Position numbers and translations under genes: made by a program. Below the pieces are notes generated by a model that saw only the letters and a list, made by a program, of their open reading frames with translations, was not told the origin of the DNA and did not search any database. Positions 1 through 53,693 of a stretch of DNA of 53,693 nt are shown in pieces. Source of the stretch: a virus; the UHGV virus genome UHGV-0129084; one strand, given 5' to 3'. Positions within the stretch are counted from its first letter, which is position 1; each line of letters begins with the position of its first letter.

Positions 1-107
1 AACCCCCCCCCGCCTTTCTCGTTCCATCCTGGAACTGTGTCTTACCGACACATTGTCATCCTGACGCTGATAAGATACATGATTTAAAATGATAGGTAAA
101 CACTTAC

Positions 108-701
108 TTACTGCTTGTTGTAAACAAAACCAATATCTTTCTTGTGAGGCATATCTGCTGCGGAAAAAGCTGCGATCTTCGCGAGTCGATCACATATTTC
201 ATTTTCACGATGCCCGGCGTGACCTTTAACCCACTTCCAGCGAACATTATGTCGACTTGCAGCCTCATCCAGACGCTTCCACAGATCAACATTCTTTACC
301 GGTTTTTTGTCAGAAGTCACCCATCCATTGCGTTTCCACCATTTCATCCACTGTGTCATGCCGTTTTTCAGATACTGGCTATCAGAGTGCAAAATAACGT
401 TGCATGGATATTTCAAACGCTCCAGCCCGATAAGTGCCCCCATCATCTCCATGCGGTTATTGGTGGTGCTATGAAAACCATCTGAGAACTCGCGTTCCTC
501 ACCACGATACTGGAGAACGATACCGTAACCGCCCGGGCCACCCGGATTTTTAAGGCAAGAGCCATCACTAAAGATTTTCACGGTTTTAAGCTGGGGATTG
601 AACTCTACGACAGGCGTTGTGGGATTGGTGCGGGGGGAATTTTTGTTTTTGGCTTTTTTGCGAGTTTTTGCTTGCGATCGGGCTGGTGTCTTCGTCGTCA
701 T
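108..701 (-). CDS. Ribonuclease HI (RNase H) with basic N-terminal extension
   Basis: ORF 108..755; motifs [26 protein letters not shown] typical of RNase HI; start placed at in-frame ATG 701 preceded by AGGAG on the minus strand (706-710). Confidence 0.8.
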
Positions 702-1286
702 ATAAACTCCTGAATCAAGCGCCGCGCCGATTTTTTTCCTCGCGCGTGCGCACACGCGTGCGTGTTAATAATTATTAAAATAAACAAATTACTTCCCAGA
801 ACAGGTTTTAATAAAACCTGAACTGAACGAACGAAGTGAGTGAAGTTCACCTCGAACGAAGTGAGAGGTTGTCTTTTCAGGTAATACTCTCCCAGGGAGG
901 TGAGTACAAAATTTCCTCACCAACCTGGTCGTTTCATAACCTGAAAAGTTATGACCTAAGTCTACTGTCAGCTTAGGCTTGGGAAGTTATGGATGACAGC
1001 ACCCCAGAACCGAGATCTTCCCACACTTTATGAAGGGGAGTACTGGATTCAACCTCTCGAAACACCCCAGACTCGACAATCATAAAGTGACCCTTGTCTC
1101 CGCTCACTTTGGTTCCCCCTTCCCCGACACCTAAACGGCACCGGTTCTACGCTGGTAGTGAGCTTTTTTAAACCTGACGCCAGTGACGCTTACCCCCACC
1201 CATCAGGTCGAGTCTCCAGTCTACGACTGGAAACTATCAGATCTTAGCACTTACAATTCACTTTATGAATAGTTTGTACTTATCTA

Positions 1287-1541
1287 TCATTTCGATTGAT
1301 TATTTTCTCGACCATGTAGTTGAACATTCAAGGCAAACACCTCGTTAATCAACTCACCTAAAAGCTGTTCAACAAGTTCGCGATGCTCCCCAAGATGCAA
1401 GCACTTAATTGCCCATTCGTACAAGTTGAAAGCCTGCTCGCGATCTTTCATCATTTCACGGGCCTGGGCCAGAAAATCGCTCTCTACGAGCGCAACGACA
1501 TTAGTCGGGTATGACATGTTGGTTTCCTTAAAGTGGTTCAT
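1287..1541 (-). CDS. Hypothetical protein (84 aa)
   Basis: Intact ORF in the same orientation as neighbours; no recognisable motif. Confidence 0.35.
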   Translation of the reverse strand: MNHFKETNMSYPTNVVALVESDFLAQAREMMKDREQAFNLYEWAIKCLHLGEHRELVEQLLGELINEVFALNVQLHGRENNQSK

Positions 1542-1623
1542 AAAATCGATTTTAAAGCGTCTGGGAAGGGGTTCTAGTGGATTCTGTAGTGATGTTCAGG
1601 TCTGGAGTCTCTGATACAAAGCT

Positions 1624-1680
1624 GCCTGCTTCCGTATATTAATAATTAATATGTAGTTATTTATATATACAGAAGCAGGC
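1624..1680. repeat. Inverted-repeat element (16-bp arms, 25-bp AT-rich spacer), copy 1
   Basis: GCCTGCTTCCGTATAT ... ATATACAGAAGCAGGC. Confidence 0.6.
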
Positions 1681-1702
1681 TAATTACAGACGCCAGAACA
1701 AA

Positions 1703-2296
1703 CTAAGCAGCCTTCTTTGATGGTCTTTTTTTCCTGATCACATTCGCAGGATCATACCCTCCCAGACTTTTCATGACGTCCAAAGGGATCTTGCTTATAG
1801 AGTGCCCAGCGTCCTGACAGAATCCTCGAAAAACAACGAGCATACTGCCACCTGGGTTGATGTTTACTTCTACCTGACCCAGATTTACGTCAGGCTCGAC
1901 AAACGCTACGCGGCCACCAGACAGAATAATCGTCTCATTCGCACACTCTGTTGCACGCTCATACCACTTTGTATCTAGGGATTGAGGAATTAGCATCACT
2001 GTTGTAACTCCGCGAGCCTGCTCACGTATAGCCGCATCAATCCAGGGGTAGATTTTGGAGTAGGGTGGATTGAGGAAGGCAATTGTACCTGGCTGTCCCC
2101 ATTCAGATTTCAAAGCATCACGCTCAACGCCTATGAAATTAGGCAGCTTTGCATTGTCCTTGTTGCAGGCAACGTCAACATCAAATGTCACTCCAAGATA
2201 ACGTTGAATGGCAGAAAACAGCCAGTCAGGTGTTCTCCAGAGGTCACGAAGAGAGTTGTCGCGCTTTCGCTGTTTGATTTTTTCGGCTGCAATCAT
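1703..2296 (-). CDS. DNA N6-adenine methyltransferase (phage Dam-like)
   Basis: 197 aa; catalytic NPPY motif (FLNPPYS) of amino-MTases; small size typical of phage orphan Dam enzymes. Confidence 0.7.
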   Translation of the reverse strand: MIAAEKIKQRKRDNSLRDLWRTPDWLFSAIQRYLGVTFDVDVACNKDNAKLPNFIGVERDALKSEWGQPGTIAFLNPPYSKIYPWIDAAIREQARGVTTVMLIPQSLDTKWYERATECANETIILSGGRVAFVEPDVNLGQVEVNINPGGSMLVVFRGFCQDAGHSISKIPLDVMKSLGGYDPANVIRKKRPSKKAA

Positions 2297-2479
2297 CTTC
2301 TTTCTCTATAGGTAAGTATATACCTATTTTTGCATTTGATTTTATGTCTGGCAATCAAATAAAACGCGCCAGAAATGCAAACGAGAAGCTCTCTGGCGCG
2401 TTTTTGTGGTGCTGGGTATGTGATTGGCTTACCCAGTACTATAAAGCTCTCTATGGGCTTTATTTTAAGTAGGGGAACG

Positions 2480-3289
2480 TCATCCAATAGTGTACTCCGC
2501 GACAAACTTCTTAACGATCGGTGATTCTTCGTTCAATGTTAGATTTCCACCGTCTCTAACGGCAATTCCTGTCGCTGGAAATACAGCCATCATTTGCCCA
2601 GCCTGAGTTGACGCAGTATTAAGCGGATACGGTTTTTCTGGATTGCTCATTAAAGCAATCTTAATACTATTACTTGTAGCCTTCTTTTCTGTGAGAAGGT
2701 GTCTCATGGAAATTATCGTGTAAACACTAATATCTGGACCTCCGCTAAACCAATTAAGAAGGTTTAATATCTTATCCTTTGCTTTGACAGGCGCGTTATC
2801 GTAAGCGTCTAAGAAAATATCTTTTTCTAAGCCCGCTTTATTGAAAAACGAATCATCTTTATCACTTAAAGTAAAACGAGGACCTCTTGCAGTACGAGCT
2901 TTTTTATTTGTATTGCTATCATTTGACTGTTGAACTTTTAATTCATCATTAACCTCAACACACTCTTCAACCTCAATAAATCCCAATTGTTCTGGCTCGT
3001 TTTCGACAGCTTCAACACTTTCAGCGTTAATTACGTTTATAGGCTCATGCGCTAACTCCAACTCATTTAAAGCAGAGCTGAAATCACCTGCTTTTTCTTC
3101 ATTGAACAGTTCTTCGGCAACATCATCAGAACTCATGGCTACGCCAGCATCTAGGCCGAGCAGCAGATCGTCAATATCATCAGTATTTTCAACCTGTGCA
3201 GCTTTTTTTACTGGTTCATCAAGTGATTGCAACATGGCTGTCAGCTCGTCCAGATCAGCATTTGTCATTATATTTTCAACCGAACTCAT
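2480..3289 (-). CDS. Hypothetical protein with strongly acidic N-terminal half
   Basis: 269 aa; first ~130 residues very rich in D/E (e.g. NTDDIDDLLLGLDAG, VEAVENEPEQLGFIEVEECVEVNDE), C-terminal half neutral. Confidence 0.45.
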   Translation of the reverse strand: MSSVENIMTNADLDELTAMLQSLDEPVKKAAQVENTDDIDDLLLGLDAGVAMSSDDVAEELFNEEKAGDFSSALNELELAHEPINVINAESVEAVENEPEQLGFIEVEECVEVNDELKVQQSNDSNTNKKARTARGPRFTLSDKDDSFFNKAGLEKDIFLDAYDNAPVKAKDKILNLLNWFSGGPDISVYTIISMRHLLTEKKATSNSIKIALMSNPEKPYPLNTASTQAGQMMAVFPATGIAVRDGGNLTLNEESPIVKKFVAEYTIG

Positions 3290-3410
3290 GTAAGTCTCCT
3301 TCTGTTTGGTTACATTTGCGTTTCGATGGCTGCATTTTGACTAAACCTATCAGGCGGAAAAGTATTAAATACAGGCAGGAAATGATTGAAAGGCGACTGT
3401 TCTTTAAAAA

Positions 3411-3445
3411 AAAAGCCTACTTTAAACTTTTTAAAGTAGGCTTTT
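3411..3445. terminator. Bidirectional rho-independent terminator
   Basis: 16-bp stem AAAAGCCTACTTTAAA / TTTAAAGTAGGCTTTT with 3-nt loop, A-run upstream and T-run downstream. Confidence 0.65.
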
Positions 3446-3448
3446 GTT

Positions 3449-4006
3449 TTACACAATTTCAGAGGGCAATTTAAAAAATCCGTACTTATTACGTGCCTTA
3501 AAGAAGCATTGCATCATTAAGTTTGTGTCATATAAGGCACTATGTGCTTTGGCATGATCGTATATAAAGCCAAGAGAGAAGGCCAACTCTTCAAGGCGGG
3601 GACGTTTACCGTCTTCTGTGGCCCACAATCCCGATAACATAGTATCTATAACAGGAACTTCTGGCAGTCTTACTCCATACCCTGAAAACTCGTGTCGAAT
3701 AAATGGTATATCAAATGCTTCGCCGTTATGAGCAACCCACACACTACATGCCCCCATATAAGCGCCAATTTCGCTGGCATGATTTGACAACAAAGGTTCA
3801 GCTGCGAGCTGTTCCAATGAAATGCCATGAACGGCTTGAGCTTTCGGATCTATGTTTCTGCGAGGGTTAAAACGCATCTCCAGACTATCAATATGTCTCT
3901 GTGTCTCCAGTTCATAGCGGGTAATTGCGATTTCAATAATTTTATGACCAGCAAGGAAATCCAGTCCCGTAGACTCGATATCGATGCCTGCAACAATCGT
4001 TGTCAT
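3449..4006 (-). CDS. DnaQ-like 3'-5' exonuclease (DEDDh family), candidate proofreading subunit
   Basis: Exo I GIDIESTGL, Exo II HNGEAFDIPF, Exo III HSALYDT motifs in correct order; 185 aa. Confidence 0.75.
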   Translation of the reverse strand: MTTIVAGIDIESTGLDFLAGHKIIEIAITRYELETQRHIDSLEMRFNPRRNIDPKAQAVHGISLEQLAAEPLLSNHASEIGAYMGACSVWVAHNGEAFDIPFIRHEFSGYGVRLPEVPVIDTMLSGLWATEDGKRPRLEELAFSLGFIYDHAKAHSALYDTNLMMQCFFKARNKYGFFKLPSEIV

Positions 4007-4015
4007 CAGAACTCC

Positions 4016-4435
4016 TTACAACTTCTTAGCGCCCTTAAGTAGTGCGCTACGTACAAATTGAGCCGCTTTTTTCAAAGTTTCTTCACTGGTTTCACAGACA
4101 ATCGGATCTTTCCACTTACCTGACACAGTGTTGAGAATATTGATTTGGTTGCTATCCAGACAAACAGAGATATAAAGCACCGTGCCACCAGCCAGCATCA
4201 AATGCATAGGAAACAGAGGCTTTTTACTGCCTTCACTGAACTGAGACATGGCGATGTTAATGGCTTCACCCACTTGTGTACCAACAAGCCCCTGCGCAGT
4301 TTCGAATATGGCACGAATAGCCAGACGAGCCTCTCGATCGCTCATAAGCGACCGGGAATGTTCGTCCGCTACACGAATCAAAGCCTCTGTTGTTTTCCGA
4401 TCCAGTTCATCTTCAAGCAACATTTCACTAAACAT
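4016..4435 (-). CDS. Hypothetical protein (139 aa)
   Basis: Intact ORF between exonuclease and kinase genes; no recognised motif. Confidence 0.4.
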   Translation of the reverse strand: MFSEMLLEDELDRKTTEALIRVADEHSRSLMSDREARLAIRAIFETAQGLVGTQVGEAINIAMSQFSEGSKKPLFPMHLMLAGGTVLYISVCLDSNQINILNTVSGKWKDPIVCETSEETLKKAAQFVRSALLKGAKKL

Positions 4436-4496
4436 TTTTTATCCTTAACCCATTTTGAGAGTTTTATTGTCGCAATGTCGAAGAGGCGAACAATTT

Positions 4497-5141
4497 CTAA
4501 TGAACGGTCACTCGGCCACAGAACCGGTTTTCTATCTTTTCTACAGCGTTATCTAGCATTCTCATCACTGATCTGGCTCTTGCTTCAACCGTGCGATATC
4601 GGTTGGAAACGACGAAGGTTTGCAGATCTCCCCTTTGCGGATGCAGGTGAATTTTTGTCAGTTCCCCGCACATCAACGCATCAATACGAGCGACATACAG
4701 ACGGTCTAATGATGCTCGTTGTGATCGCAAGTAATCTCGCTCTGAGAGAGCGACTCCCGGGCGTAAGCCAGCAATGGCGTTAAAGTTTGAAATAGCAGTT
4801 TTGTGGCAAAACTTTTCGATATCGAGGGCTAACTCAATACACCGATCTTCATTTGTATGGCCGACCAAATCCAACGTGTAGGCCATAACATCAGCAGGTG
4901 TGCGATCGATAACAAAGCCTTCAACACCACGCGTAAGTAGCTCTATATGCTTTGCTATTTCCATTTGAATCTGAAGCCGCTCATATAGAGGCATAGAATC
5001 ACCTACTCGAACACCGAGGCGGCTCATCAAACTTCCGACACCAGCATCCACGTAAGGGATTCCGTAATGTTTGTCGATATATTTAGCCAGGGTTGTTTTC
5101 CCACTGCCCTGAGCACCAGTGATCCCAATCCGGTAATCCAT
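4497..5141 (-). CDS. P-loop nucleotide kinase-like protein (possible dNMP kinase)
   Basis: N-terminal Walker A GITGAQGSGKTTLA; 214 aa; start overlaps DHFR stop (ATGA at 5141). Confidence 0.5.
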   Translation of the reverse strand: MDYRIGITGAQGSGKTTLAKYIDKHYGIPYVDAGVGSLMSRLGVRVGDSMPLYERLQIQMEIAKHIELLTRGVEGFVIDRTPADVMAYTLDLVGHTNEDRCIELALDIEKFCHKTAISNFNAIAGLRPGVALSERDYLRSQRASLDRLYVARIDALMCGELTKIHLHPQRGDLQTFVVSNRYRTVEARARSVMRMLDNAVEKIENRFCGRVTVH

Positions 5142-5617
5142 TACGACCTTCTGTATACGATCTGCGAAAAGCCAGGCTCTTCCTCGCTGGCTCGTTGGGT
5201 ATAAGCTGTTTCAACAGGCACAAAGCCTAAATTACGCATCATGCTTGCAGGGAAGAATGCATCGGCGTTTGGCACATCAACGCCGATGTGGGAGAGCCAA
5301 ATCTCTTCAACATGCGGCATGAATAGCGAGTAAATTTGTTCCCCGCCAATCACCCACACAGGCTCTGGTAATCGCAACACATCATCCACACCAGCAGGGT
5401 AGAATCCATTTGGTACAAAGCCATGAGAGCGCGTCAAAACGAGGTTATGACGCTCTGGAAGAGGGCGTTTGAGACTTTCCATCGTTTTACGCCCCATAAC
5501 GACAGTGGCGTTTTTGGTGAGTCTCTTAAATAGCTTCAGATCGGTAGAACAACGCCAGGGTAGTTCATTCGCTATGCCGATCTCATAGTTACGGCCAACA
5601 GCAGCTATCATCTTCAT
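5141..5617 (-). CDS. folA: Dihydrofolate reductase
   Basis: 158 aa; MIAAVGRNYEIG...LPW...VVMGRKT pattern diagnostic of DHFR. Confidence 0.85.
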   Translation of the reverse strand: MKMIAAVGRNYEIGIANELPWRCSTDLKLFKRLTKNATVVMGRKTMESLKRPLPERHNLVLTRSHGFVPNGFYPAGVDDVLRLPEPVWVIGGEQIYSLFMPHVEEIWLSHIGVDVPNADAFFPASMMRNLGFVPVETAYTQRASEEEPGFSQIVYRRS

Positions 5618-6027
5618 TTGCTCACCTCATAGATGACCGGTCGATGGTGAGAGTCAGCTAAAGCGGCACGGAGTCGAGGATCGTGCACCAGCGCAGCGAT
5701 AAGCAGATCGCCTTTATGCTCCGCTAATGTGCGCTTAATATGCTTCTCATAACTGGTGCCATTCGGTACTAGATGAAGCCAGTCATAATCAACACCAAAA
5801 TCTTTCAGCCATCGTTTAGTGGGCGCTTCAAGAGTTTCAGAGCGGCTACTGATAAGCACCACTTCAGCCCCTGAGCGAGCAAAACCACGCAACATACGGC
5901 TGGTGGGGAAAATGAGTTCATCACCGGCAATGAATTGGCCTGCATCCGAGTCAGATACAGATTTACGATGGCTGGTATTTGCCAGCACACCTTCAATTTC
6001 GCATAAGACATACATACCTCTTGCCAT
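5614..6027 (-). CDS. Hypothetical protein, possibly HAD-like phosphatase/nucleotidase
   Basis: ORF 5614..6123 overlaps thyA; start moved to in-frame ATG at 6027 (MARGMYVLCEIEGVL), 1 nt after the thyA stop; LCEIEGVL loosely resembles HAD motif I with D->E. Confidence 0.3.
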   Translation of the reverse strand: MARGMYVLCEIEGVLANTSHRKSVSDSDAGQFIAGDELIFPTSRMLRGFARSGAEVVLISSRSETLEAPTKRWLKDFGVDYDWLHLVPNGTSYEKHIKRTLAEHKGDLLIAALVHDPRLRAALADSHHRPVIYEVSK

Positions 6028-6028
6028 A

Positions 6029-7159
6029 TCACACCGCCACTGGAACCTTGATCCACGGTAGAGGGGCATAGCCAAGAATAAGAATCTCGTCCCATTTGAA
6101 ATCATCCAGCTCAGACCATTCATTAGGGAATATAACGACCGGATCTGAATGCTCTGGAGCCTGTCGTTGCATTAGCTCACACACACCTTCCATGTGGTTG
6201 TTGTACAAATGCACGTCAAAGCCAAAATGCACAAATGCACCGGCCATGTGACCCGTAATCTTCGCGAGAAAATGAGTGAGAATGCCATAGCCAGCAATAT
6301 TGAATGGCATACCAACAAAAGTGTCTACGCTACGCTGTACGAGGCAGGAGTTGAGGATGCGTTTGGGGATTCCAAGTGCATCCAGTTCAGTTTCAGTAAC
6401 ACTGCCGTCCATCTCCAGATCGTATAGCATCTTGGTGTAGATAGACTCATAACCGAGGCGACTGTGTTGAAGACCAATGTCAGTTGCCATCGTTAAACGG
6501 GTTTCAAAATCCAGTTCACGACTCCACAAAGAGAAGACAAAGTGGCAAGGTGGCAGTTTCATATCCTCAAGCTCGCCTACGTTCCATGCGTTAAGCATGA
6601 TGCGACGATCGGTAGGGTTCGTGCGCAGTGTATCGACAATACGCTGTAGCTGATCGATTTCACGGGACAGCACTACGCGATCTTCACTGATACCCAGGTA
6701 TCCCTCGACTTTGTACCCGCGTTCACGGAAAGTAGCGATCTTGCTCAGATATTCACTATGGCTCACGATGCGGGTATCTTCCCATCGACGCCACTGCTTA
6801 CCGTAAACCGGCCCCAAATCGCCATTCTCATCGGCCCATGCATCCCAAATCTTAACGCCGTTATCCTTGAGAAATTGGATGTTGCCCGTGCCTTTCAGAT
6901 ACCACTCAAGTTCGACAAGCAGTGGCTTAAGATTTACCGCCTTTCCAGAAATAAGCGGCACAGTCCCACCAGTAAGCATGTAGTAAGAGGGAACGTAGCA
7001 GGTGCTTAAAGTACCAGTGCCTGTGCGATCATCAGCCTGCACGCCGCTTTTAAGCACCGTCTCAATAACTTTTGCATACGATGCGTTTGTTACCTGACCG
7101 TTCGTATGCTCACGATTCAAAAGGAGTGACACAAAAACCTCACAAAGATAAGTAACCAC
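6029..7159 (-). CDS. thyA: Thymidylate synthase (ThyA) with two internal insertions
   Basis: DRTGTGT, LLVELEWYLKG, GDLGPVYGKQWRRW, catalytic LPPCH; 376 aa, longer than typical ThyA. Start uncertain: ORF begins with GTG at 7159, alternative GTG at 7132. Confidence 0.85.
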   Translation of the reverse strand: MVTYLCEVFVSLLLNREHTNGQVTNASYAKVIETVLKSGVQADDRTGTGTLSTCYVPSYYMLTGGTVPLISGKAVNLKPLLVELEWYLKGTGNIQFLKDNGVKIWDAWADENGDLGPVYGKQWRRWEDTRIVSHSEYLSKIATFRERGYKVEGYLGISEDRVVLSREIDQLQRIVDTLRTNPTDRRIMLNAWNVGELEDMKLPPCHFVFSLWSRELDFETRLTMATDIGLQHSRLGYESIYTKMLYDLEMDGSVTETELDALGIPKRILNSCLVQRSVDTFVGMPFNIAGYGILTHFLAKITGHMAGAFVHFGFDVHLYNNHMEGVCELMQRQAPEHSDPVVIFPNEWSELDDFKWDEILILGYAPLPWIKVPVAV

Positions 7160-7216
7160 TTATTCATTGCGTGAGTTTACATTTATTGAGAGAACAAGAC
7201 CAGACAGATAAAAAAA

Positions 7217-7235
7217 TGGTGGCCATAGGCCACCA
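7217..7235 (-). terminator. Rho-independent terminator after the 7304..8173 gene
   Basis: TGGTGGCC-ATA-GGCCACCA hairpin with A7 tract on the plus strand (T-run on minus). Confidence 0.6.
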
Positions 7236-7303
7236 AAAACGAATAGTTGTTTCAGAAATTTAACGCGCCAGCGCAATATACACAGATAGATAACTACCTA
7301 CAA

Positions 7304-8173
7304 TTATTTTTTGATCATTCCGTACATTGCTGAGGCTTTAGCTTGCTCAACAAAGGAGGATAAATCGACATCACTATAGGTTGGAGACTTCAGAATCTTT
7401 CCATCGGAAATTCGAAAACCGATCATCTTATCGGTGCCATCAGCATGGCGAAATCCCAGGTCAGAAGAGTCGTATTTGCAGTTGGCCACAGCATGGCGAC
7501 GCTCTTCGGCATCTGCAGGCCATAATTTTGTCATGTTGGACCGATGAATTTCGCCAACCAGCTCGACGACATTGATACCGAGAAAATCAGCCAGTCGATA
7601 AGTCATCATGCACGCCACATAGATTTTGTTCATTACACGGCGCAGTTCCTGAATCAGCTCAGAATCCTTAACAGTCTTCTTCTCAAGTTTATCTGCCAGC
7701 TCTTCGAGCATACATGACGCCTCACGAGCTTCCTGAAATGGCATTGCCATATCATCGAAAACAGTGTTACCAGGCACAAAAATTGTCTGCATAAAGCGAT
7801 CAATGCTCTGTTCCTGCGTGTAATAAGTCATGCCGGTAGAAATACCACCTTTGATGGCGACCATCGTACCAACACCAACGTATAAAAAGTCGGCCATTGC
7901 ATCCAGCAGTTGCTCAATATCCCCATTCATTGCGGCTGGAATACCTTCCACTACAGCTTCTTCATGAATCAGGCTTGCACGGAGACGAAGCAGCTCTGGT
8001 GTCGGCATAACGCGTCTCGGATGCTGGAAGAGTTCATGAAACTGATCGACCATCTTGTAAATACTTTCAGTGGCTACACCATGGCCTTCATGCAACTCAT
8101 ATGGTTCTGGCTTAAATCCAATGAGTCGATCGGTGGCAAGTTTCAGGTGGTCAGTCAGTTTGGTAAAGTTCAT
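7304..8173 (-). CDS. Hypothetical protein, possible all-alpha NTP pyrophosphohydrolase (MazG-like)
   Basis: 289 aa; helical acidic patches (LIHEEAVVEG...GDIEQLLDAMADF) reminiscent of MazG/HisE-type NTP-PPases; weak. Confidence 0.35.
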   Translation of the reverse strand: MNFTKLTDHLKLATDRLIGFKPEPYELHEGHGVATESIYKMVDQFHELFQHPRRVMPTPELLRLRASLIHEEAVVEGIPAAMNGDIEQLLDAMADFLYVGVGTMVAIKGGISTGMTYYTQEQSIDRFMQTIFVPGNTVFDDMAMPFQEAREASCMLEELADKLEKKTVKDSELIQELRRVMNKIYVACMMTYRLADFLGINVVELVGEIHRSNMTKLWPADAEERRHAVANCKYDSSDLGFRHADGTDKMIGFRISDGKILKSPTYSDVDLSSFVEQAKASAMYGMIKK

Positions 8174-8250
8174 GCTAGTTTTGCTCCTTCTTAATTCTTG
8201 TGATCCATTGTGGCCCAGCGTTGCCAGGCCACATAATGCTTTGTATCGGT

Positions 8251-9393: not shown

Positions 9394-9499
9394 GTGTTTT
9401 TCCTTTTTCTTTTTTGGTGCGTTTAAACAAGTTGTTATCTTATGTGTTTAAACAAGGCTTACAAATCAAAGAGAAGGTGGGGATATCCCCCACCATATG

Positions 9500-11815: not shown

Positions 11816-11832
11816 GTATCACCAAATAAAGA

Positions 11833-11855
11833 GGGCCACTAAATATAGTGGCCCA
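11833..11855 (-). terminator. Rho-independent terminator after the RuvC-like gene
   Basis: GGGCCACTA-AATAT-TAGTGGCCC hairpin followed on the minus strand by TCTTTATTT. Confidence 0.55.
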
Positions 11856-11888
11856 TGTTAATAGATAAGTACCTACCTATCAATGAAA

Positions 11889-17330: not shown

Positions 17331-17430
17331 AATCGTTTTTTCAGTAGTTATTGGCCGATGCTACGATAACTCATTAGGCATACCTTAATCTGCATTTGCC
17401 TGTTTACTTATCCCAGTTATCCACTGGATA

Positions 17431-17488: not shown

Positions 17489-17529
17489 GCCTCTAGCCGT
17501 TGCGGTTACTGGTCTGAAAGGGTGTTGCC

Positions 17530-43805: not shown

Positions 43806-43886
43806 GTGTTTTTCTTTTGTGGTTTGGCAAAAGAAAAGTTGTTTCACCAATGAATCAAGCGTGGAGGTGTTCTCCACGCTTATTTT

Positions 43887-46020: not shown

Positions 46021-46127
46021 CTGGTAGGTTGTTACTTACTTATCACGATGAGCGGATGATAGCGACTGGTGGCAGTTTTTGGAAGTGTAAACGGAAGGGA
46101 ATGTATCTGGGAAGTCAGCAGAGAAAA

Positions 46128-46185
46128 GACCTGCTTCCGTATAAATAATAATAAGTAACTTAATATTTATATACAGAAGCAGGTC
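46128..46185. repeat. Inverted-repeat element (16-bp arms, 26-bp AT-rich spacer), copy 2
   Basis: GACCTGCTTCCGTATA ... TATACAGAAGCAGGTC; shares core and the same single arm mismatch with the element at 1624-1680. Confidence 0.6.
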
Positions 46186-46383
46186 AAAAACCAACCCAAC
46201 CTAGTTTTTAGTCTCATGGTAGGCAACCTTAAGATCTACTTCAAAACAGCTGCACGCCAGACGGTTGCAACATTGTTAAGTGTAACAAATTATTGTAGAT
46301 TACTCAGACACAGAATAGCGTCTACAACTTAAGAAACGTCCAGAAATAAACAATGTACCAATCACGTAGAAAGGGAATTAAGA

Positions 46384-47061
46384 ATGAAGGCGAATAAGTC
46401 AGCGGCACTTTTAGTTTTATTATTAGCCGGTTGCGCGCAACAAAGTAACCCACAACAAAATGCCACTGTAAAACCAATCCTAACCCAAGAAATATTGCCT
46501 TCCTCTAACGTAGAGTCAAAGGCGAAAATGGGTGACCTTGTCGTTTATAACACGTTTGTGTCCACGTTAAAAACCGACATGGTCACTCTTGGTAACGCTT
46601 CTGGTTCGATGTCTGAGATTAAAGCGGGCAACTACTGCCACGTTGGTGGTGGGGTCTACCGGAACTTTGAAGACTCAAAAGCTGTTGGCCTGAAGGCCAT
46701 TACAGGGCAGGTAGTGAGCCACACTGATAACGTCAAGTATGACAAGGTCAAAAACACTATATCTCCTCCCAACACTACGACGTTCGACGCCTCTGAAATA
46801 TCCATAAAATTCGCACAAAATGTCCCCTGCCATGTAGAGAAAAAGATTGTTCAGTCTATTTCTTATAATGGCAAAAGTGGCGACGACCTTAAATTTATTT
46901 ATTCCGAAAGCTACCCAAGTTTAGATGAAACTAAGACTGAGTTTTCAGTGCCTCTTTCCGATGCAAAAACCAAAGTCGAATATAAAAACCTGGCATTCAA
47001 GGTTATTGAAATGGAGGGTACTACAATCCGCTACTATGTATTACCATCTGGCAATAAATAA
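46384..47061 (+). CDS. Lipoprotein (225 aa)
   Basis: Signal peptide with lipobox MKANKSAALLVLLLAGC; plus-strand gene in a minus-strand context; AAGGGA RBS upstream. Confidence 0.6.
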   Translation: MKANKSAALLVLLLAGCAQQSNPQQNATVKPILTQEILPSSNVESKAKMGDLVVYNTFVSTLKTDMVTLGNASGSMSEIKAGNYCHVGGGVYRNFEDSKAVGLKAITGQVVSHTDNVKYDKVKNTISPPNTTTFDASEISIKFAQNVPCHVEKKIVQSISYNGKSGDDLKFIYSESYPSLDETKTEFSVPLSDAKTKVEYKNLAFKVIEMEGTTIRYYVLPSGNK

Positions 47062-47076
47062 ACTGCTTTAAAATAT

Positions 47077-47094
47077 AGGCGCCATCTGGCGCCT
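47077..47094. terminator. Bidirectional rho-independent terminator between convergent genes
   Basis: AGGCGCC-ATCT-GGCGCCT hairpin flanked by A/T runs on both sides. Confidence 0.6.
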
Positions 47095-47099
47095 TATTC

Positions 47100-47459
47100 T
47101 TAACTCTTCTTCATTAACTCGCGTTTAATTTCATCGGTACGCATCGTGACATCGGCAGCAGTGATCGCCTCGTTCAGCTTCACGATGTCCTCGATTTCCT
47201 GCGGTGTCTTCTCCGCAAGATGGAAAATAGCAGCACGAATCACGTCAGAACGAGTGAACTTCTCGAAGCGAGGGATGAACTTCATCATCTCCAGCAGTTC
47301 GAAGTATTCGTCCTCCAGTGACATTGTGCGGCTTTTAATTTTCTCTTTGCCACGAGTCGGGCGTCCCTGTGGTCTGACTGGTTGGCGCAAAGGAGTTGTG
47401 TTCTTAGCCGGTGCATCAGGCTCTTTGCGCTTTGCTAGGTCACCCATTTTCATGGACAT
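47100..47459 (-). CDS. Small partition protein (ParB/ParG-like adaptor)
   Basis: 119 aa; basic N-terminal tail, predicted ribbon-helix-helix-like C-terminal region; start overlaps the parA stop. Confidence 0.45.
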   Translation of the reverse strand: MSMKMGDLAKRKEPDAPAKNTTPLRQPVRPQGRPTRGKEKIKSRTMSLEDEYFELLEMMKFIPRFEKFTRSDVIRAAIFHLAEKTPQEIEDIVKLNEAITAADVTMRTDEIKRELMKKS

Positions 47460-48127
47460 TATTCTTCTTCCTCCAGACTCAACAGATAATCTACAAATTC
47501 TTCAAACTCGGCTTCCGCCTTTTTGTCGCGCTCGCTACCGGTCATTTCAAAGATAGAGCGACCAGACTCTTCCGCATCATCATAGACGTTGCGGTTATAT
47601 AGATTGACTGGCGCAGACTCGATTCCAAACGTCTCAACAATCTCTTTAGCCGCCAGAATGCGAGACACTTGTGATGGCAAAGCCGGGCACTGGTTCATGA
47701 CCGCGCGGACCTTCACTTTATCGTTTACATTGCGAACATTGTCGATAATAGGATCGATGTCACGTAAAGATTTCAAATCACGACGCTTAGGACGCAGCGG
47801 GATAATGATAACGTCAGCCATCAGCATCGCTTGTCGCTGAATTTCGGAGTCGAAGCCACCAGCATCTACCACTACAAACTCAGCTCTACCCTGAAGCGAT
47901 TTTAGGTGCTTAATGATGTCATCCTGAACGTATGCAAAAGGAATCAGCTCAAGGTCTTCGTTCTGTCGACGGTCTTCACACCAGCTCGTTGTCGTGCGCT
48001 GAATATCTATATCGGTAATATAAACCTTCTTCTTCTTTTTGACTTTCAGGCAAACGGCAATTTGCTGGGCAACGGTGGATTTGCCAGGCCCGCCCTTTGT
48101 GCCGCCAACCACAAAGATCTTGGTCAT
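47459..48127 (-). CDS. parA: ParA-type partition ATPase (small type Ib)
   Basis: 222 aa; deviant Walker A GGTKGGPGKST. Confidence 0.8.
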   Translation of the reverse strand: MTKIFVVGGTKGGPGKSTVAQQIAVCLKVKKKKKVYITDIDIQRTTTSWCEDRRQNEDLELIPFAYVQDDIIKHLKSLQGRAEFVVVDAGGFDSEIQRQAMLMADVIIIPLRPKRRDLKSLRDIDPIIDNVRNVNDKVKVRAVMNQCPALPSQVSRILAAKEIVETFGIESAPVNLYNRNVYDDAEESGRSIFEMTGSERDKKAEAEFEEFVDYLLSLEEEE

Positions 48128-48445
48128 TGGAGAGTTCCCTTTGCGTATATAATTATCGTCTGAAACAACTTGTTTTCTTATATGTGATATAGCCTAAATG
48201 CCTACGGCTGCGGTGTAAAGGTTAAATGGTAGGTTGTGATTAACAATTGGCAAACATAGCTTGTATTTGTCTGTTGAAAAAAGTAACAATGACATCTATA
48301 TTACAAGTACGGTGATATGCCGTACACAATTTGATAATGCACACGTAATGGGCTATAGCCTTTTAAAGTAATTTTTGAGTCGAAAACTCAGTTTGAACAG
48401 AGGAGATTGATGGCCTTCCTACATCACGGCCATCAGGAGGAATAC

Positions 48446-48715
48446 ATGTCAGCACTAAAAAAGCAGCGCATCGATTTGAGATTAACCGATGACGATAAAA
48501 GCATCATCGAGGAAGCTGCCGCAATGTCTAACCAGAGCATTACTCAGTTTATGGTTAGCAGTGCATCTGAACGTGCCGTGAAAGTTATAGAGCAACACCG
48601 TAGACTAGTTCTGAATGAAGAATCCTGGAATCTGGTTATGGACGCTATAAGCAATCCTCCGGCACCGAACGACAAGCTGAAACGAGCTGCTGATCGTCTG
48701 AAAAGCATGGAGTAG
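48446..48715 (+). CDS. Antitoxin, DUF1778/TacA-like (ribbon-helix-helix)
   Basis: MSALKKQRIDLRLTDDDKSIIEEAAAMSNQSITQFMV; start chosen at ATG 48446 with AGGAGG RBS; directly upstream of the GNAT gene. Confidence 0.65.
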   Translation: MSALKKQRIDLRLTDDDKSIIEEAAAMSNQSITQFMVSSASERAVKVIEQHRRLVLNEESWNLVMDAISNPPAPNDKLKRAADRLKSME

Positions 48716-48722
48716 TTTACTC

Positions 48723-49244
48723 GTGGATAATATAAAGATAGAAATTTTCTCTGGAGAGAAACATTATGATTTGAATGGTTTTGATTGCGGTGAAGAATCA
48801 CTAAATGCCTTTTTAACCAACCACTTAAAAAGGCAGCATGAGGGAAAAATTCTTCGCGCTTATGTGCTTTGCACGAAAGAAGGCAGACCAAAAGTGTTAG
48901 GGTATTACACTTTGTCAGGTAGCTGCTTTGAAAAGGAGTCCTTACCTTCAAGAAGCCAGCAAAAGAAGGTACCTTATCGGAATGTTCCAAGTGTTACTTT
49001 GGGTAGGCTGGCTTTGGACAAGTCCCTTCAAGGTCAAGGATTTGGCTCAATGCTTGTAACACATGCAATGCGCGTTGTGTACAATGCATCTCTTGCTGTA
49101 GGCATTCATGGACTTTTCGTTGAGGCGTTAAATGACAAAGCCAAGGCGTTTTATAAAAGTTTAGACTTTATCCAGCTGGTTGGTAACAACGAGCGTTCTT
49201 TGTTCTATCCTACAAAATCTATCGAAAAATTGTTCGAAGAATAA
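48723..49244 (+). CDS. GNAT-family acetyltransferase toxin (TacT/AtaT-like)
   Basis: 173 aa; acetyl-CoA binding-like segment RLALDKSLQGQGFGSML; two-gene arrangement with DUF1778 antitoxin; GTG start at 48723. Confidence 0.65.
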   Translation: MDNIKIEIFSGEKHYDLNGFDCGEESLNAFLTNHLKRQHEGKILRAYVLCTKEGRPKVLGYYTLSGSCFEKESLPSRSQQKKVPYRNVPSVTLGRLALDKSLQGQGFGSMLVTHAMRVVYNASLAVGIHGLFVEALNDKAKAFYKSLDFIQLVGNNERSLFYPTKSIEKLFEE

Positions 49245-49412: not shown

Positions 49413-49664
49413 TTAATGACGCACCCACTTATCATACAACTCACGATGAACGGCAGAAGCATCTTTCTGACGTATTTTACTGCTCGTCTCATTCACCACT
49501 TTCACTGTGTTTTGAAGTCGTTTTCTGTCTTCCTGTTTTGCCTTCTCTTCCATTGCTCGTCGCGCCGCATTCCCGCCCATCGTGTAAGCGCCGACAAGAA
49601 CGAAAAGAACGGCAGCCAGCGTAATCAAAGCAACTTTTAGCTTTGTCATCAGGCTGCCTAGCAT
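49413..49664 (-). CDS. Membrane protein with N-terminal TM helix and charged coiled-coil tail (spanin-like, speculative)
   Basis: KVALITLAAVLFVLVGAYT hydrophobic segment followed by EEKAKQEDRKRLQ. Confidence 0.35.
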   Translation of the reverse strand: MLGSLMTKLKVALITLAAVLFVLVGAYTMGGNAARRAMEEKAKQEDRKRLQNTVKVVNETSSKIRQKDASAVHRELYDKWVRH

Positions 49665-49665
49665 A

Positions 49666-50385
49666 TTAGACCATCCCTTTCTGGTGTCTTCTTACCTGCG
49701 ACCAGGCAATGAATCCGGCCACAACAATAGTGGCAATGCCGAAGATGATGCGTACTGTATCCCCGCTAGAGATATGACCTTGTGCCTTATCCATAGCAGC
49801 GGAAACCTGCGGCATAACATCGGCCAGCTGCGCCAGACCAATACCTGCTGTAACAGTTGCGCCTGCGGTTTCTTTAGTTACAGGAACAGCCTTCACGGTT
49901 TTCACCGGCTTAACAACGCCAGCTCGACGCAGACCTTCCTCAATAACTTCTGCCGCATACCAGGTGTTCAGCGTTTTTAGCGGGCCTCGGCCATTCTCGT
50001 GGCGAATGATTGCCTCAACCAAAGGTCGAAGGATGTCGTAATCATGCAGATCGATGATCATGTCTGCGGTTACACCAACGGCTTTAGACACCTCATTAAT
50101 GTAGGCGTCAGTATTGTTTTCATTCGGCGGTGCCCAACGTTCAATAACTTCACGAATGGTATCGATACTTGAGCCGTCTTTTGCGCGACGTTTGTCGTGG
50201 TAGGTAATTAGAGTCACCGCCAGCGCACGAATCCCCCAAACAGGGTCTTTAAACGTGCAAAAGCGCGGTTCGGCAGGGTTGTCGATTAGCCCCTGCCACG
50301 GCGAACCTTTGTCGAGGTTGCCAGGGTTGTTATTACGAATGCCTCTCGGAGTTTTCATCCTTGATCTCCTGTTATTGCAGTCCAC
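49666..50385 (-). CDS. Hypothetical membrane-anchored protein (239 aa), possible envelope/lysis function
   Basis: GIRNNNPGNL motif near the N-terminus, C-terminal TM segment RIIFGIATIVVAGFIAW; function not assigned. Confidence 0.35.
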   Translation of the reverse strand: MDCNNRRSRMKTPRGIRNNNPGNLDKGSPWQGLIDNPAEPRFCTFKDPVWGIRALAVTLITYHDKRRAKDGSSIDTIREVIERWAPPNENNTDAYINEVSKAVGVTADMIIDLHDYDILRPLVEAIIRHENGRGPLKTLNTWYAAEVIEEGLRRAGVVKPVKTVKAVPVTKETAGATVTAGIGLAQLADVMPQVSAAMDKAQGHISSGDTVRIIFGIATIVVAGFIAWSQVRRHQKGMV

Positions 50386-50707
50386 TTTTTACGCCATACG
50401 CGGCTAACCCCAAAAGCAGTGCGGTAATAATGAACGACGTTATTTTAGAAACAATGCCGCCAAAGAACCCACTTGAGATGGAATCTAACCGGTTAAGGAG
50501 TTTGTCCAGATTGGAGTGTTGAATACTATGTTGCGCCGGGGTCATATCACCAAAGTAGGTTTTCAGCTGATCATTGACCTCCTGGCCAATTTCTTCACGT
50601 AGCTCTTTACCTAATTTGCCAACAACCTCCCGAGCAACGATCGCGGCAATACGCTCAACTTGCTCTGTTGTAACGCCCGCCATCTCGTTCGACATGTTTT
50701 CCTCCAT
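50372..50707 (-). CDS. Tail-anchored small membrane protein (111 aa)
   Basis: Single C-terminal TM segment ITSFIITALLLGLAAYGV; overlaps the downstream gene by 14 nt. Confidence 0.35.
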   Translation of the reverse strand: MEENMSNEMAGVTTEQVERIAAIVAREVVGKLGKELREEIGQEVNDQLKTYFGDMTPAQHSIQHSNLDKLLNRLDSISSGFFGGIVSKITSFIITALLLGLAAYGVKSGLQ

Positions 50708-50769
50708 GAAAAGTCAAATCGGGATGGCGGTTTTATATCATAAAACGCCCACACTTGGTAGGTAAGTAC

Positions 50770-51615
50770 TTACACATGAGCGCCGTAAATTGCCCCAGCT
50801 TTAGTCCAAGTTGGAGCATTACCGGTAACAGCTTTACCAGCTGCGCCACCTCCGTACAATGTCCCCACTCGTCCAGTTGCAGCGGCACCAGCAGCCCCCA
50901 CATTACCTCCACTACCGCATGTATATTGGACAGCATTAGAGCCGATCACATATTGAGCGCCAATCCCGGCAGCGGTTAGAGTGCCAGAAGTTGCCGCCCG
51001 CGAATTTGAAGCTGGTGGCCTTGTAGTGTTTGCAACACCAAACGGGCGACCGCCCCCACCCATACCACCATCGAGTGAGCTACCGCCACCGCCACCGCCA
51101 CCGCCGGCAATAGCGCCATTATTGGTTATTCTTAAACGGGTCCCAATTCCGTTGTTAATAGCAGTGCCACCGGCAGCACCGCCACCTTTAACGCCACCAT
51201 TACCGCCACGGCCATAGACAGTTACACCTGCGTTGATTACCAGGCTGATATAAGAGTTGGTAAGCGAACTTGGGAAATCTAAACATGGCACGCCGCTACT
51301 GGACGACACCAGATCCCCTGTAATGGTAACAACGACTGGCGTCGCCCCCTGGGATTTTAAATAGTTGATCAGTGTGTCTTTGTTGTAGTTATGATTCGCA
51401 CCGATGCTGTACTGAACTTCTTTAGATCGCCCGGCCATTTGAGACATTGAACCAGCCGCTGGCAGTTGCACCGCCGTTCGAGCCGCACTCATCCATCTCT
51501 GGCCTGTCACACTGACAGCCGAAGACCCAATCCAACCGGGAACACCGACAATTGGCACATCTAATCTCCTTTTTGATGTGAATATCCTGAATTGGTGAGG
51601 GTGGCCCCTCACCAT
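50770..51615 (-). CDS. Glycine-rich tail-fibre-associated protein (gp38-like adhesin, speculative)
   Basis: 281 aa; poly-Gly tracts (GGGGGGGGSSLDGGMGGGGRP) separated by short segments; immediately downstream of the tail fibre gene. Confidence 0.45.
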   Translation of the reverse strand: MVRGHPHQFRIFTSKRRLDVPIVGVPGWIGSSAVSVTGQRWMSAARTAVQLPAAGSMSQMAGRSKEVQYSIGANHNYNKDTLINYLKSQGATPVVVTITGDLVSSSSGVPCLDFPSSLTNSYISLVINAGVTVYGRGGNGGVKGGGAAGGTAINNGIGTRLRITNNGAIAGGGGGGGGSSLDGGMGGGGRPFGVANTTRPPASNSRAATSGTLTAAGIGAQYVIGSNAVQYTCGSGGNVGAAGAAATGRVGTLYGGGAAGKAVTGNAPTWTKAGAIYGAHV

Positions 51616-51624
51616 TCACCTTGA

Positions 51625-53693
51625 TTACATTTTTGCCTTCAGTTCGCGCACTTCCTCGCGCAGCTCTTTGACAGCCTCGACCAACATGCCGATAACGCCG
51701 TTGTAGTTAAGACGCAGACGAGGCTCTCCTGACTGATCGTTATGGTCAACCGTTACCAGTTCAGGCTGAACATTCTGGACGTCCTGAGCGATGAGGCCGC
51801 CAGACTGCTCATACCGGTCACAGACCTGAATCTCGTACAGAACACCTTCGATCCGATCCAGCTTGTCGAGCGCTCGTTCAATCTTGCGAATATTGCGTTT
51901 GCTACGACGGTCAGAGCGGATATAAACGTCATTAAAGCTGCCATTACCGCCACAAACCCAAGTACCATCATTCTGGAGGTATGCGTTCGCATCCGTGCCG
52001 TTTTCGGTACGTGAGTTGTTGATCATGTAAAAACCAAACTGACTGTTTCCCAAGCCACCCAAGAAGAATTTGCGATCCGCGTGGTCTTGTCTCAACAACG
52101 CTTGTGCAGAGCTTGTACTTACAGCGTTCCTCCCGAAGATGACGTTCTGGTTACGCATATCTATCCACGCGCCAGAGCCGCTGTTGATGGAAAAACGGTT
52201 GGCGTAAACCCACGCACTTGACGTGATGTCACCCGTTACACTCAACGGCTTAAGGCTTTGCAGCGTGCTATTAACGAACCTAAAAACATGGGCGCTATTG
52301 GCGTAAACATCCAGAATGCCATCTCCGTTCTGTTTAAAGCCGGTGTCATTGTCACCCAGAACAATGGAATTACCGCCAAGACCATTGACCACACCCAGCC
52401 CAAGACCACCGTTAACAACAGCACCATTGCCCATTGTTACTCTGCCATTAGTGAGATCTACATAAAATGGACGAAGCGAACCTATATCACCATTTTCTCC
52501 CTGGTCTTTTGCTGTCGGGATAAGGTAAAAATTATTTTCGGAACGGCGAAAAATCATCCCGTATGCCGCATCGTAAATGCGTAACCCATCCGTAGAGCGG
52601 ATCTTAAGCTGTCCGGACATCGTACCGCCGCTGTTTTTCATAAATAGCGCATCAATCCAGCCTGCAAATCCCGACTTATTAATGTATAAATTTCCATCAT
52701 TTGCCAGAATGCCTCCACCTTGCGTCTTGAGGGGCTGACTCACATTTTGCAGCGTCAGCACACCAGTCATTGTTCCGCCAGAAATCGGTAACGCACCGAC
52801 ATCAGCCGCAGTGGGTTTATGAGCAGTGGTATAGACCTGCGCCCAACCAGACCAATTCGCTGTCGAAGTATCACGGCGTGAACGAACATAAACCGGTGCA
52901 TGAGCACCATCCGTTCCGCTCCAGCCAATAAGCAACTCGCCCTCACCAATCGCCCCAGCGCCTTTCATGTGGAGAATGTTGCCGTAGGCTGTCGGGGCGC
53001 CATTGTTGTAGGCTTCGTACATTTGAATGCCAGCAGTACCCTGAGTAGAGCCACTTAACGCCGTAACTCGGCCACGAGATACCAGTGTATTAATGTTGAT
53101 ATCGCCTGAGCCATCAAACTTAACACCATTGATGTTTCTCGCTGTTTGCAACTTCGTAGCAGTAGCCGCGTTGCCCGTTGTATTCTGATTACCGGCAGCA
53201 TTAACACCAGGCAAATTAATATTCGCAGTGCCATCGAAGCTAACACCACCGATGGTTCTTGCTGTCTGCAATTTGGTTGCTGTGCTTGCATTACCCGATA
53301 AAGATCCAGTGATACCACTACTCGCGTTTAATTTAGTTGCAATTGTAACATTGCCAGTAGAGTTACTAATTATAAACGGCCTTAAGCTATTGTACGTACC
53401 AAGACTGTTACCCGAATCTGTCAACATAAAATATGTATTTGAGCCATCATTTCGGATAAAGAATCCATAGTTGCCATAGGCAATGCGCAGACCATTCGCC
53501 GATTTTGAAATGATCTCACCAGTAGCCGTTAAACCGCCGTTGAGATTTCCTCCGGTTATTGGTAATGCGCCGACATCCGTGGCGGTCGGTTTAATGTGCG
53601 AACTGTAAATGACATATACCGTTCCATCAGTAAGACCAGTTGGTTTATTCGCTGTATAAGTTGGTGATGTATGAATCGTTACGCTGGCGTTAC
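51625..53693 (-). CDS. Tail fibre protein with C-terminal intramolecular chaperone domain (5' end beyond window)
   Basis: Reading frame stays open upstream of the first ATG (53427) to the window edge; repeated ATKLQTAR motifs; internal repeat LRIAYGNYGFFIRNDGSNTYF vs LRIYDAAYGMIFRRSENNFYL; C-terminal SDRRSKRNIRKIE...LAQDV region matches the S74-type chaperone of tail fibres/endosialidases. Confidence 0.7.
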   Translation of the reverse strand, partial: NASVTIHTSPTYTANKPTGLTDGTVYVIYSSHIKPTATDVGALPITGGNLNGGLTATGEIISKSANGLRIAYGNYGFFIRNDGSNTYFMLTDSGNSLGTYNSLRPFIISNSTGNVTIATKLNASSGITGSLSGNASTATKLQTARTIGGVSFDGTANINLPGVNAAGNQNTTGNAATATKLQTARNINGVKFDGSGDININTLVSRGRVTALSGSTQGTAGIQMYEAYNNGAPTAYGNILHMKGAGAIGEGELLIGWSGTDGAHAPVYVRSRRDTSTANWSGWAQVYTTAHKPTAADVGALPISGGTMTGVLTLQNVSQPLKTQGGGILANDGNLYINKSGFAGWIDALFMKNSGGTMSGQLKIRSTDGLRIYDAAYGMIFRRSENNFYLIPTAKDQGENGDIGSLRPFYVDLTNGRVTMGNGAVVNGGLGLGVVNGLGGNSIVLGDNDTGFKQNGDGILDVYANSAHVFRFVNSTLQSLKPLSVTGDITSSAWVYANRFSINSGSGAWIDMRNQNVIFGRNAVSTSSAQALLRQDHADRKFFLGGLGNSQFGFYMINNSRTENGTDANAYLQNDGTWVCGGNGSFNDVYIRSDRRSKRNIRKIERALDKLDRIEGVLYEIQVCDRYEQSGGLIAQDVQNVQPELVTVDHNDQSGEPRLRLNYNGVIGMLVEAVKELREEVRELKAKM

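Follow-up and report, generated by a model that had tools for sequence, protein, structure and literature searches.

Phage replication genes beside a pLF82-type IncFIB replicon: UHGV-0129084 as, very probably, half of an SSU5/pHCM2-group phage-plasmid

The virus genome UHGV-0129084, a stretch of 53,693 nucleotides analysed here as a whole (the window), carries a phage-style set of DNA metabolism and replication genes together with a replicon, a partition operon and an addiction module of the kind expected in a low-copy plasmid, which raises the question of what kind of element it belongs to and how that element is maintained. The window is a linear piece of 53.7 kb with densely packed genes, mainly on the minus strand. 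Our results indicate that it very probably represents about half of a siphovirus phage-plasmid of the SSU5/pHCM2 group from the Escherichia coli lineage, namely the early, replication and maintenance arm, with an IncFIB replicon of the pLF82 type. The element is an ordinary member of a family that has already been described and studied by experiment. The SSU5_pHCM2 group (Pfeifer et al., 2021), which lies within the SSU5 supercommunity, has been typed as IncFIB and predicted to consist of siphoviruses (PMC7969092), and plasmid-typing tools hold the replicon types IncFIB(pLF82-PhagePlasmid) and IncFIB(H89-PhagePlasmid).

Comparison by megablast placed the window among resident plasmids. The best match of its first 25 kb was NZ_CP104844 (99.1% identity over 100%), a 112 kb circular, non-mobilizable IncFIB plasmid according to PLSDB typing, and 114 plasmid records covered at least 80% of this part, the closest plasmid matches being circular IncFIB plasmids of approximately 105-125 kb from E. 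coli, E. albertii and Shigella. The same 25 kb showed 98.4% nucleotide identity to the phage-plasmid Cyrano (pLF82, OV696614) and 77.8% to Salmonella phage SSU5. The same match pattern held for the second 25 kb and at the window's right end; across Cyrano and the IncFIB plasmids (e.g., NZ_CP104844 and pLR4-105k), identity is 98.4-99.1% in the first 25 kb and, for the most part, 97-98% thereafter. Each of the 50 genes checked has its full length, and the genes common to the window and Cyrano are 92-100% identical, except for the variable gp38 adhesin, which has no match in Cyrano; in the left block (108-16431), full-length proteins are 96-100% identical to those of both NZ_CP104844 and Cyrano. 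In addition, the region from SbcD through repA and its iterons (query 15300-19700) was matched in 248 of 5,426 complete E. coli genomes, with all 381 places located on plasmids and no chromosomal match. The sequence-only reading of this DNA had named chromosomal hits with prophage flanks as a finding that would speak against a phage-plasmid, and no such placement appeared.

That reading had also likened the element to SSU5/pHCM2-type phage-plasmids, a likeness borne out by the megablast matches to IncFIB plasmids, Cyrano and SSU5 as well as by gene order. Colinear homologues of 42 of the 50 genes are present in SSU5 (mean amino-acid identity 82%), and of 31 genes checked from 19790 rightwards, 27 keep their order in the first 50 kb of pHCM2. 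What is shared with SSU5 and pHCM2 is the replication, recombination and nucleotide-metabolism arm, together with ParA and its partner (91-92% identical), at a nucleotide identity of only about 78-81%; their tail-fibre and adhesin genes differ from those of the window. Repressor, integrase, glutaredoxin and toxin-antitoxin genes, all found here, are missing from the syntenic arm of SSU5, whereas pHCM2 has the repressor and integrase and lacks the toxin-antitoxin pair at this locus. Cyrano is much closer: RepA is identical, and gene order, the ParA operon, the TacA/GNAT pair and the lysis cassette are the same. Differences from Cyrano include an IS911-like insertion, an extra tRNA (Tyr), another 225-amino-acid gene beside par, and a diverged gp38 adhesin and fibre tip. 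Furthermore, a HicA/HicB islet, which lies between the UvsY-like gene and dnaE in Cyrano and NZ_CP104844 (in the latter also with CspG), is absent from the window (26219-26400), and RecA has 357 amino acids here, with no intein or homing endonuclease, compared with 780 in Cyrano. In several near-identical plasmids, the region matched by the first 25 kb includes an annotated LAGLIDADG homing endonuclease or Hint-domain protein. Cyrano itself is maintained at approximately 5.5 plasmid copies per cell, and its virions, measured by quantitative PCR, are released spontaneously; induction by ciprofloxacin is 39-fold, and siphovirus particles were seen by electron microscopy (PMC9928086).

Capsid and terminase genes, for which the sequence-only reading had advised a search elsewhere on the contig, were not found inside the window and were found beyond its right end in relatives: in Cyrano, the tail-fibre gene cut by the window's right end is immediately followed by the structural block from terminase to J, and of the genes for particles and lysis, only those for lysis, adhesin and tail fibre fall within the window. 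At position 53693 the window stops within the tail-fibre open reading frame, where similarity to relatives turns mosaic, and at positions 1-11 a AACCCCCCCCC run, not shared by relatives, stands where they have a terminator-like hairpin. This run looks like a contig-end artefact, and together with the cut reading frame it suggests that the window is a whole draft-assembly contig broken at both points.

The plasmid half of the element centres on its replicon, which consists of the following features.

17404-17640, plus strand: origin module 1 (sequence, repeat families, alignment to P1 oriR, kept in SSU5)
17640-17790, no strand assigned: AT-rich spacer between the modules (composition profile)
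17790-18035, plus strand: origin module 2 (sequence, repeat families)
18073-19128, plus strand: repA, iteron-binding replication initiator, 351 amino acids (Pfam Rep3 WH1 and WH2, i.e., Rep3_N and Rep3_C)
19131-19572, no strand assigned: downstream iteron array, about 11 copies (six direct, five inverted)

RepA is 100% identical to its counterpart in Cyrano (pLF82), so that the replicon is of the pLF82 type, and 91% identical to that of SSU5. The description of RepA as P1-type proved correct, with 47.5% identity to P1 and P7 RepA over residues 40-293 (expectation value (E) 1e-71, tblastn) and a DnaA-box/GATC segment that aligns to P1 oriR. Degraded pseudogenes of repA and parA would have told against a working plasmid; with 100% identity of RepA and 99.6% of ParA to the versions in Cyrano, neither gene is a pseudogene. 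The repA gene carries Rep3 domains and, as had also been proposed, is flanked by iterons, which cluster only around it: all 17 matches to the iteron core WCCACTNTRG fall in 17531-19521, against a chance expectation of 1.36 in the whole window. With up to 3 mismatches, 23 of 25 sites lie in 17419-19570 (3.0 expected); one of these, at 17419, coincides with a DnaA box, which leaves about 22 iteron-like sites.

Module 1 comprises DnaA boxes (TTATCCACT at 17417), six GATC sites within AGATCC-type heptamers (17430-17488) and five iterons spaced by 21-23 bp (17529-17636). Its DnaA/GATC part can be aligned at the nucleotide level with the annotated oriR of P1, whereas the iterons differ. In module 2, the DnaA box (TTATCCACA at 17790) is perfect, the GATC heptamers are degenerate, with fewer GATC sites than in module 1, and six iterons at 21 bp spacing (17910-18031) lie directly 5' of repA. 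The two modules are linked by the direct-repeat families D6, D8 and D11 at a spacing of 373-381 bp, and both are kept in SSU5 at 89% identity. Between them, the GC fraction falls to 0.22-0.25 at 17660-17750, and the 17640-17790 spacer, the least conserved stretch in the SSU5 alignment, is a candidate unwinding element. The downstream array begins 3 bp past the repA stop codon. This tandem duplication of a P1-oriR-like module around an AT-rich spacer, kept in SSU5, is absent from both P1 and the H89-type replicon. A literature search returned nothing relevant on the iterons or origin of pHCM2.

The overall layout follows that of P1 (oriR-incC-repA-incA) and RepFIB, with the same order of DnaA boxes, GATC repeats, five iterons at 21-bp spacing, repA and an iteron array from the stop codon, the last resembling P1 incA and the E-K control repeats of RepFIB. 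In contrast, the iteron sequence is ATCCACTATAGAGAG here and GATGTGTGCTGGAGGGA in P1, a second, degenerate DnaA/GATC/iteron module precedes repA, and the downstream iterons occur in both orientations. Experiments on the FIB replicon have led to a model in which upstream iterons are tied to the origin and downstream iterons exert control (PMC11983097). By analogy with that model and with the annotation of P1, RepA bound to the 21-bp-spaced iterons beside the DnaA boxes and Dam (GATC) sites would fire a theta origin of the P1/RepFIB type and would repress its own promoter through the iterons just 5' of repA, with those of module 2 as the presumed promoter/operator; the approximately 11 downstream iterons may titrate or "handcuff" RepA and thereby keep the copy number low. 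Membership of the P1-like phages (Punavirus) was considered and rejected: matches to P1 are confined to the RepA protein and a 220-bp tail-fibre patch, the rest of the genome being unrelated, and the type Ia ParA/ParB system of P1 differs from the small ParF-like ParA found here.

A further comparison shows that the replicon can differ between otherwise similar elements. The pECOH89-type phage-plasmids, which carry IncFIB(H89-PhagePlasmid) and include the NZ_CP027358 plasmid, phage CMS-2020a and PhiR41_1, have the backbone and the DnaA-box/GATC segment in common with the window, while the replicon block 17519-19558 is replaced by a different cassette. In many such relatives the flanks are near-identical (left 92.6%, right 98%; joined match 96-97%), but the initiator is only 48.8% identical to the RepA described here. 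Against NZ_CP027358 (L007, 2520-4308), the break points fall at 17518/17519 and 19558/19559, so that the swapped block contains the iterons, repA and the downstream iterons, and the retained DnaA-box/GATC segment forms its left border. The substitute cassette has TATGCTGTCAGCGGT iterons and one origin module only. Such a swap fits the published picture of conserved phage genes combined with variable plasmid genes (PMC7969092). It is conceivable, if on balance doubtful, that the origin is bipartite, with module 1 acting as the origin and module 2 as the repA operator, and that the cassette is exchanged as a unit between phage-plasmids of almost identical backbone via the conserved DnaA/Dam segment, switching the incompatibility type. 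If so, a switch from the pLF82 type to the H89 type would let related phage-plasmids co-reside or displace each other. No paper describing this duplicated-origin and cassette-exchange anatomy was found in a limited literature search.

Maintenance of the element would further depend on its partition operon, which, as the sequence-only reading had placed it, spans 47100-48127.

47100-47459, minus strand: ParA partner gene, 119 amino acids (phrog_5111), overlapping the parA stop codon
47459-48127, minus strand: ParA, small Walker-type, 222 amino acids (Pfam, NCBIfam ParA_partition, PHROG 164)

ParA matched the NCBIfam ParA_partition model with E 1.9e-33 and 115.7 bits, where the equivalog cut-off is 180. 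It has no N-terminal DNA-binding domain, and its best solved relative is ParF of TP228 (E 1.2e-10), which indicates a small-ParA kind of system and not the P1 kind. The family of the 119-amino-acid partner is seen only in SSU5-like elements. Its AlphaFold2 model (mean predicted local distance difference test score, pLDDT, 70.5) has a basic, predicted-disordered N-terminus (residues 1-45) followed by helices. From the position of its gene, the partner is a candidate centromere-binding adaptor, perhaps a ParG-like ribbon-helix-helix protein, and the small ParA ATPase and this partner would then segregate the plasmid copies. The label "RelE/ParE putative toxin" given to the partner in the Cyrano record is unsupported, since no protein family matches it and the model shows only helices behind the disordered tail.

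The addiction module is located next to the partition operon and is encoded on the opposite strand; its proposed assignment to the GNAT/DUF1778 type at 48446-49244 is upheld by the identification of both genes.

48446-48715, plus strand: TacA/DUF1778 antitoxin (PF08681 TacA1, E 8.6e-26)
48723-49244, plus strand: GNAT toxin (phmmer against PDB chains, full length)

In phmmer searches, the toxin matched the solved acetyltransferase chains 6gts and 6ajm and KacT (5zgn) with E of approximately 1e-74 to 1e-78 (7.5e-78 for 6gts and 4.9e-74 for 5zgn), and relatives are annotated at this pair with a TacA-family antitoxin and a KacT toxin. The search output names 6gts and 6ajm as acetyltransferases only; we take both to be AtaT. 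Toxins of this GNAT/ribbon-helix-helix family are toxic through acetylation of aminoacyl-tRNA and have a plasmid-stabilising effect. The AtaT/KacT-like toxin with its TacA antitoxin may kill or arrest cells that lose the element. Neither SSU5 nor pHCM2 has the pair at this locus, which marks it as cargo of the E. coli lineage. In the Cyrano lysogen, expression of both genes has been found (PMC9928086).

The phage half is represented in this part of the genome by genes for lysogeny, lysis and host range.

34067-34453, plus strand: helix-turn-helix repressor-like gene (Pfam HTH_19; putative repressor in the Cyrano annotation)
34448-35551, minus strand: tyrosine recombinase (Pfam Phage_integrase; integrase in the Cyrano annotation)
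49413-49664, minus strand: Rz-like spanin (Cyrano/pLR4-105k annotation)
49666-50385, minus strand: endolysin (PHROG)
50372-50707, minus strand: holin (Cyrano/pLR4-105k annotation)
50770-51615, minus strand: gp38-type adhesin (Pfam GP38)
51625-53693, minus strand: tail-fibre gene, cut by the window end, with no stop codon before the end (Pfam Peptidase_S74, Gp34_trimer)

The repressor-like gene and the recombinase are common to Cyrano and pHCM2, and the syntenic 22-82 kb of SSU5 contains no homologue of either. The helix-turn-helix repressor would silence the lytic genes, and the recombinase beside it probably resolves multimers, a role suggested by analogy. In the lytic phase, structural genes outside the window would package the DNA, after which holin, endolysin and spanin would lyse the cell. 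The predicted tail-fibre genes were recovered as the gp38-type adhesin and the fibre reading frame from 51625. An interpretation of the latter as a truncated "600-aa" gene was rejected, as the window end cuts a longer gene of which this frame is the C-terminal portion.

Several observations weigh against the phage-plasmid reading. The window, a linear 53.7 kb piece, speaks neither to the circularity and copy number of this particular element nor to its head, terminase and tail genes. The 119-amino-acid partner of ParA had no family or fold match in Pfam, NCBIfam, PDB sequences or a Foldseek search against the PDB, and no convincing centromere repeats were present near parA, where a scan of 45900-48500 gave two-copy short repeats and small palindromes. 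Promoter-like sites in the origin are no commoner than in shuffled sequence; similarly, terminator scans of the origin and promoter and terminator scans of the partition and toxin-antitoxin regions were no richer than shuffled sequence. In addition, one small gene has been hit by an insertion sequence (IS), which shows some decay or cargo gain, with the replication and maintenance genes spared.

36293-37542, plus strand: IS911-like (IS3 family) insertion, 1250 bp (transposase domains HTH_Tnp_1 and rve)

This element is flanked by a 3-bp CTT target duplication (36290-36292 and 37543-37545) and is 99.8% identical to an IS in Salmonella phage SEN22 and 95% identical to IS911 in Sf6. It interrupts a homologue of the small Cyrano gene CYRAN_41, and the site is empty in Cyrano.

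Of the competing readings, the one that survives best, and which we nevertheless regard as improbable, holds that the element is a domesticated or defective "phage-like plasmid" that produces no virions and lives only the plasmid half of the lifestyle. The location of the structural and packaging genes outside the window would be compatible with it, as would the IS911-like insertion, and one SSU5-like element of Klebsiella is described as acting like a plasmid while its phage genes are conserved (PMC8969562). However, the insertion affects only a small gene of unknown function, the lysis and tail-fibre genes are intact, and the full-length state of all 50 genes, with their close identity outside gp38 to those of the virion-producing Cyrano (PMC9928086), argues against this reading. 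A strictly lytic SSU5-like phage in which the plasmid genes are relics, as SSU5 was first described, is very unlikely. SSU5 was indeed obtained as a phage isolate and is a component of lytic cocktails (PMC7969092), and its syntenic arm is devoid of repressor, integrase and toxin-antitoxin genes, but the window possesses a repressor-like gene, a recombinase, a toxin-antitoxin pair, a ParA operon and a complete iteron replicon, and the plasmids closest to it, at 99% identity, reside in cultured isolates. Least credible of all is a prophage integrated in the chromosome through the tyrosine integrase at 34448-35551 instead of an extrachromosomal plasmid, since, even with a phage-integrase-family recombinase adjoining the repressor-like gene and no circularising junction in the window, the SbcD-repA region occurs exclusively on plasmids in the E. 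coli genomes, the records with near-full-length matches are all plasmids of 95-125 kb, the window ends carry no host genes (on the left the unshared poly-C run typical of an assembly end, on the right the cut tail-fibre gene), and RepA, the iterons, ParA and the toxin-antitoxin pair are all intact.

With the SSU5/pHCM2-group phage-plasmid thus preferred, the result carries little weight as a discovery, as SSU5-like phage-plasmids have been catalogued, with replicon types of their own, and occur in 248 of 5,426 complete E. coli genomes. Its practical value is that the contig can be labelled as part of a phage-plasmid, neither a plain plasmid nor an integrated prophage. Only the duplicated origin module, the precise borders of the replicon-cassette swap and the unsupported toxin label on the ParA partner are mildly new. 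The mapped replicon anatomy, with its duplicated origin module and exact swap borders, adds a small value for work on mini-replicons and incompatibility.

The remaining genes of the arm serve mainly DNA metabolism, replication and recombination.

108-755, minus strand: RNase H (Pfam/NCBIfam)
1703-2296, minus strand: Dam methylase (Pfam/PHROG)
3449-4006, minus strand: 3'-5' exonuclease, RNase T-type (Pfam/PHROG)
4497-5141, minus strand: AAA kinase-like protein (Pfam/PHROG)
5141-5617, minus strand: DHFR (Pfam/NCBIfam)
5614-6123, minus strand: PNKP-phosphatase-like protein (Pfam/PHROG)
6029-7159, minus strand: ThyA (Pfam/NCBIfam)
7304-8173, minus strand: MazG-like protein (Pfam/PHROG)
8251-9393, minus strand: NrdB (Pfam/NCBIfam)
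9500-11815, minus strand: NrdA (Pfam/NCBIfam)
11889-12458, minus strand: RuvC-like protein (Pfam/PHROG)
13200-15116, minus strand: SbcC (Pfam/NCBIfam)
15346-16431, minus strand: SbcD (Pfam/NCBIfam)
20672-21097, minus strand: DUF7238 protein (Pfam/PHROG)
21189-22019, minus strand: SPFH/stomatin-like protein (Pfam/PHROG)
22316-23389, minus strand: RecA-like recombinase, 357 amino acids, no intein (Pfam/PHROG)
23658-24653, minus strand: 5'-3' exonuclease (flap endonuclease, FEN; Pfam/PHROG)
24663-25691, minus strand: gp32-like single-stranded DNA-binding protein (SSB; Pfam/PHROG)
25809-26240, minus strand: UvsY-like protein, weak match (Pfam/PHROG)
26366-29884, minus strand: DnaE-type polymerase (PHP, pol3_alpha, finger and HHH_6 domains)
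30065-31300, minus strand: AAA_5 ATPase (profile match)
31396-33504, minus strand: CobT/VWA protein (profile match)
39909-41231, minus strand: ATP-dependent DNA ligase (Pfam)
42624-43877, minus strand: primase (DnaG_N and Toprim just under the Pfam cut-offs; annotated as DNA primase in relatives)
43887-45227, minus strand: DnaB-like helicase (Pfam)

Every member of the phage-style set that had been named from the letters was found intact where it had been placed, by Pfam and NCBIfam or, for the primase, by the annotation of relatives. The gene content, viewed by analogy, suggests a lytic mode in which, after DNA damage, the element may switch to its own replisome (DnaE, DnaB, primase, gp32-like SSB, ligase, FEN and RNase H), draw on its own deoxynucleotide supply through NrdAB, ThyA, DHFR, MazG and glutaredoxin, and use the RecA/UvsY/SbcCD/RuvC recombination set.

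Minor observations concern DnaE and its neighbours as well as the tRNA genes. The C-terminus of DnaE (residues ~1050-1170, ~26366-26735) repeatedly, though weakly, matched uracil-DNA glycosylases of family 4 (TIGR00758, E 2.9e-7; four PDB chains of uracil-DNA glycosylases, E 0.03-0.18) and did not match the usual OB or tau-binding end. The tRNA genes, three of the four confirmed by Rfam, were detected with ARAGORN.

37829-38482, minus strand: tRNA genes Ser-TGA, Thr-TGT, Tyr-GTA and Asn-GTT

Rfam found no RNA families other than tRNAs in the window. Three tRNAs, without Tyr, are annotated in Cyrano, and the syntenic region of SSU5 has Asn only. Adjoining dnaE, the AAA_5 and CobT/VWA pair (30065-33504) is conserved and is labelled "cobalamin/porphyrin biosynthesis" in relatives; its CobT-like protein is 60-65% identical to the SSU5 and pHCM2 versions, compared with 81-94% for the neighbouring genes.

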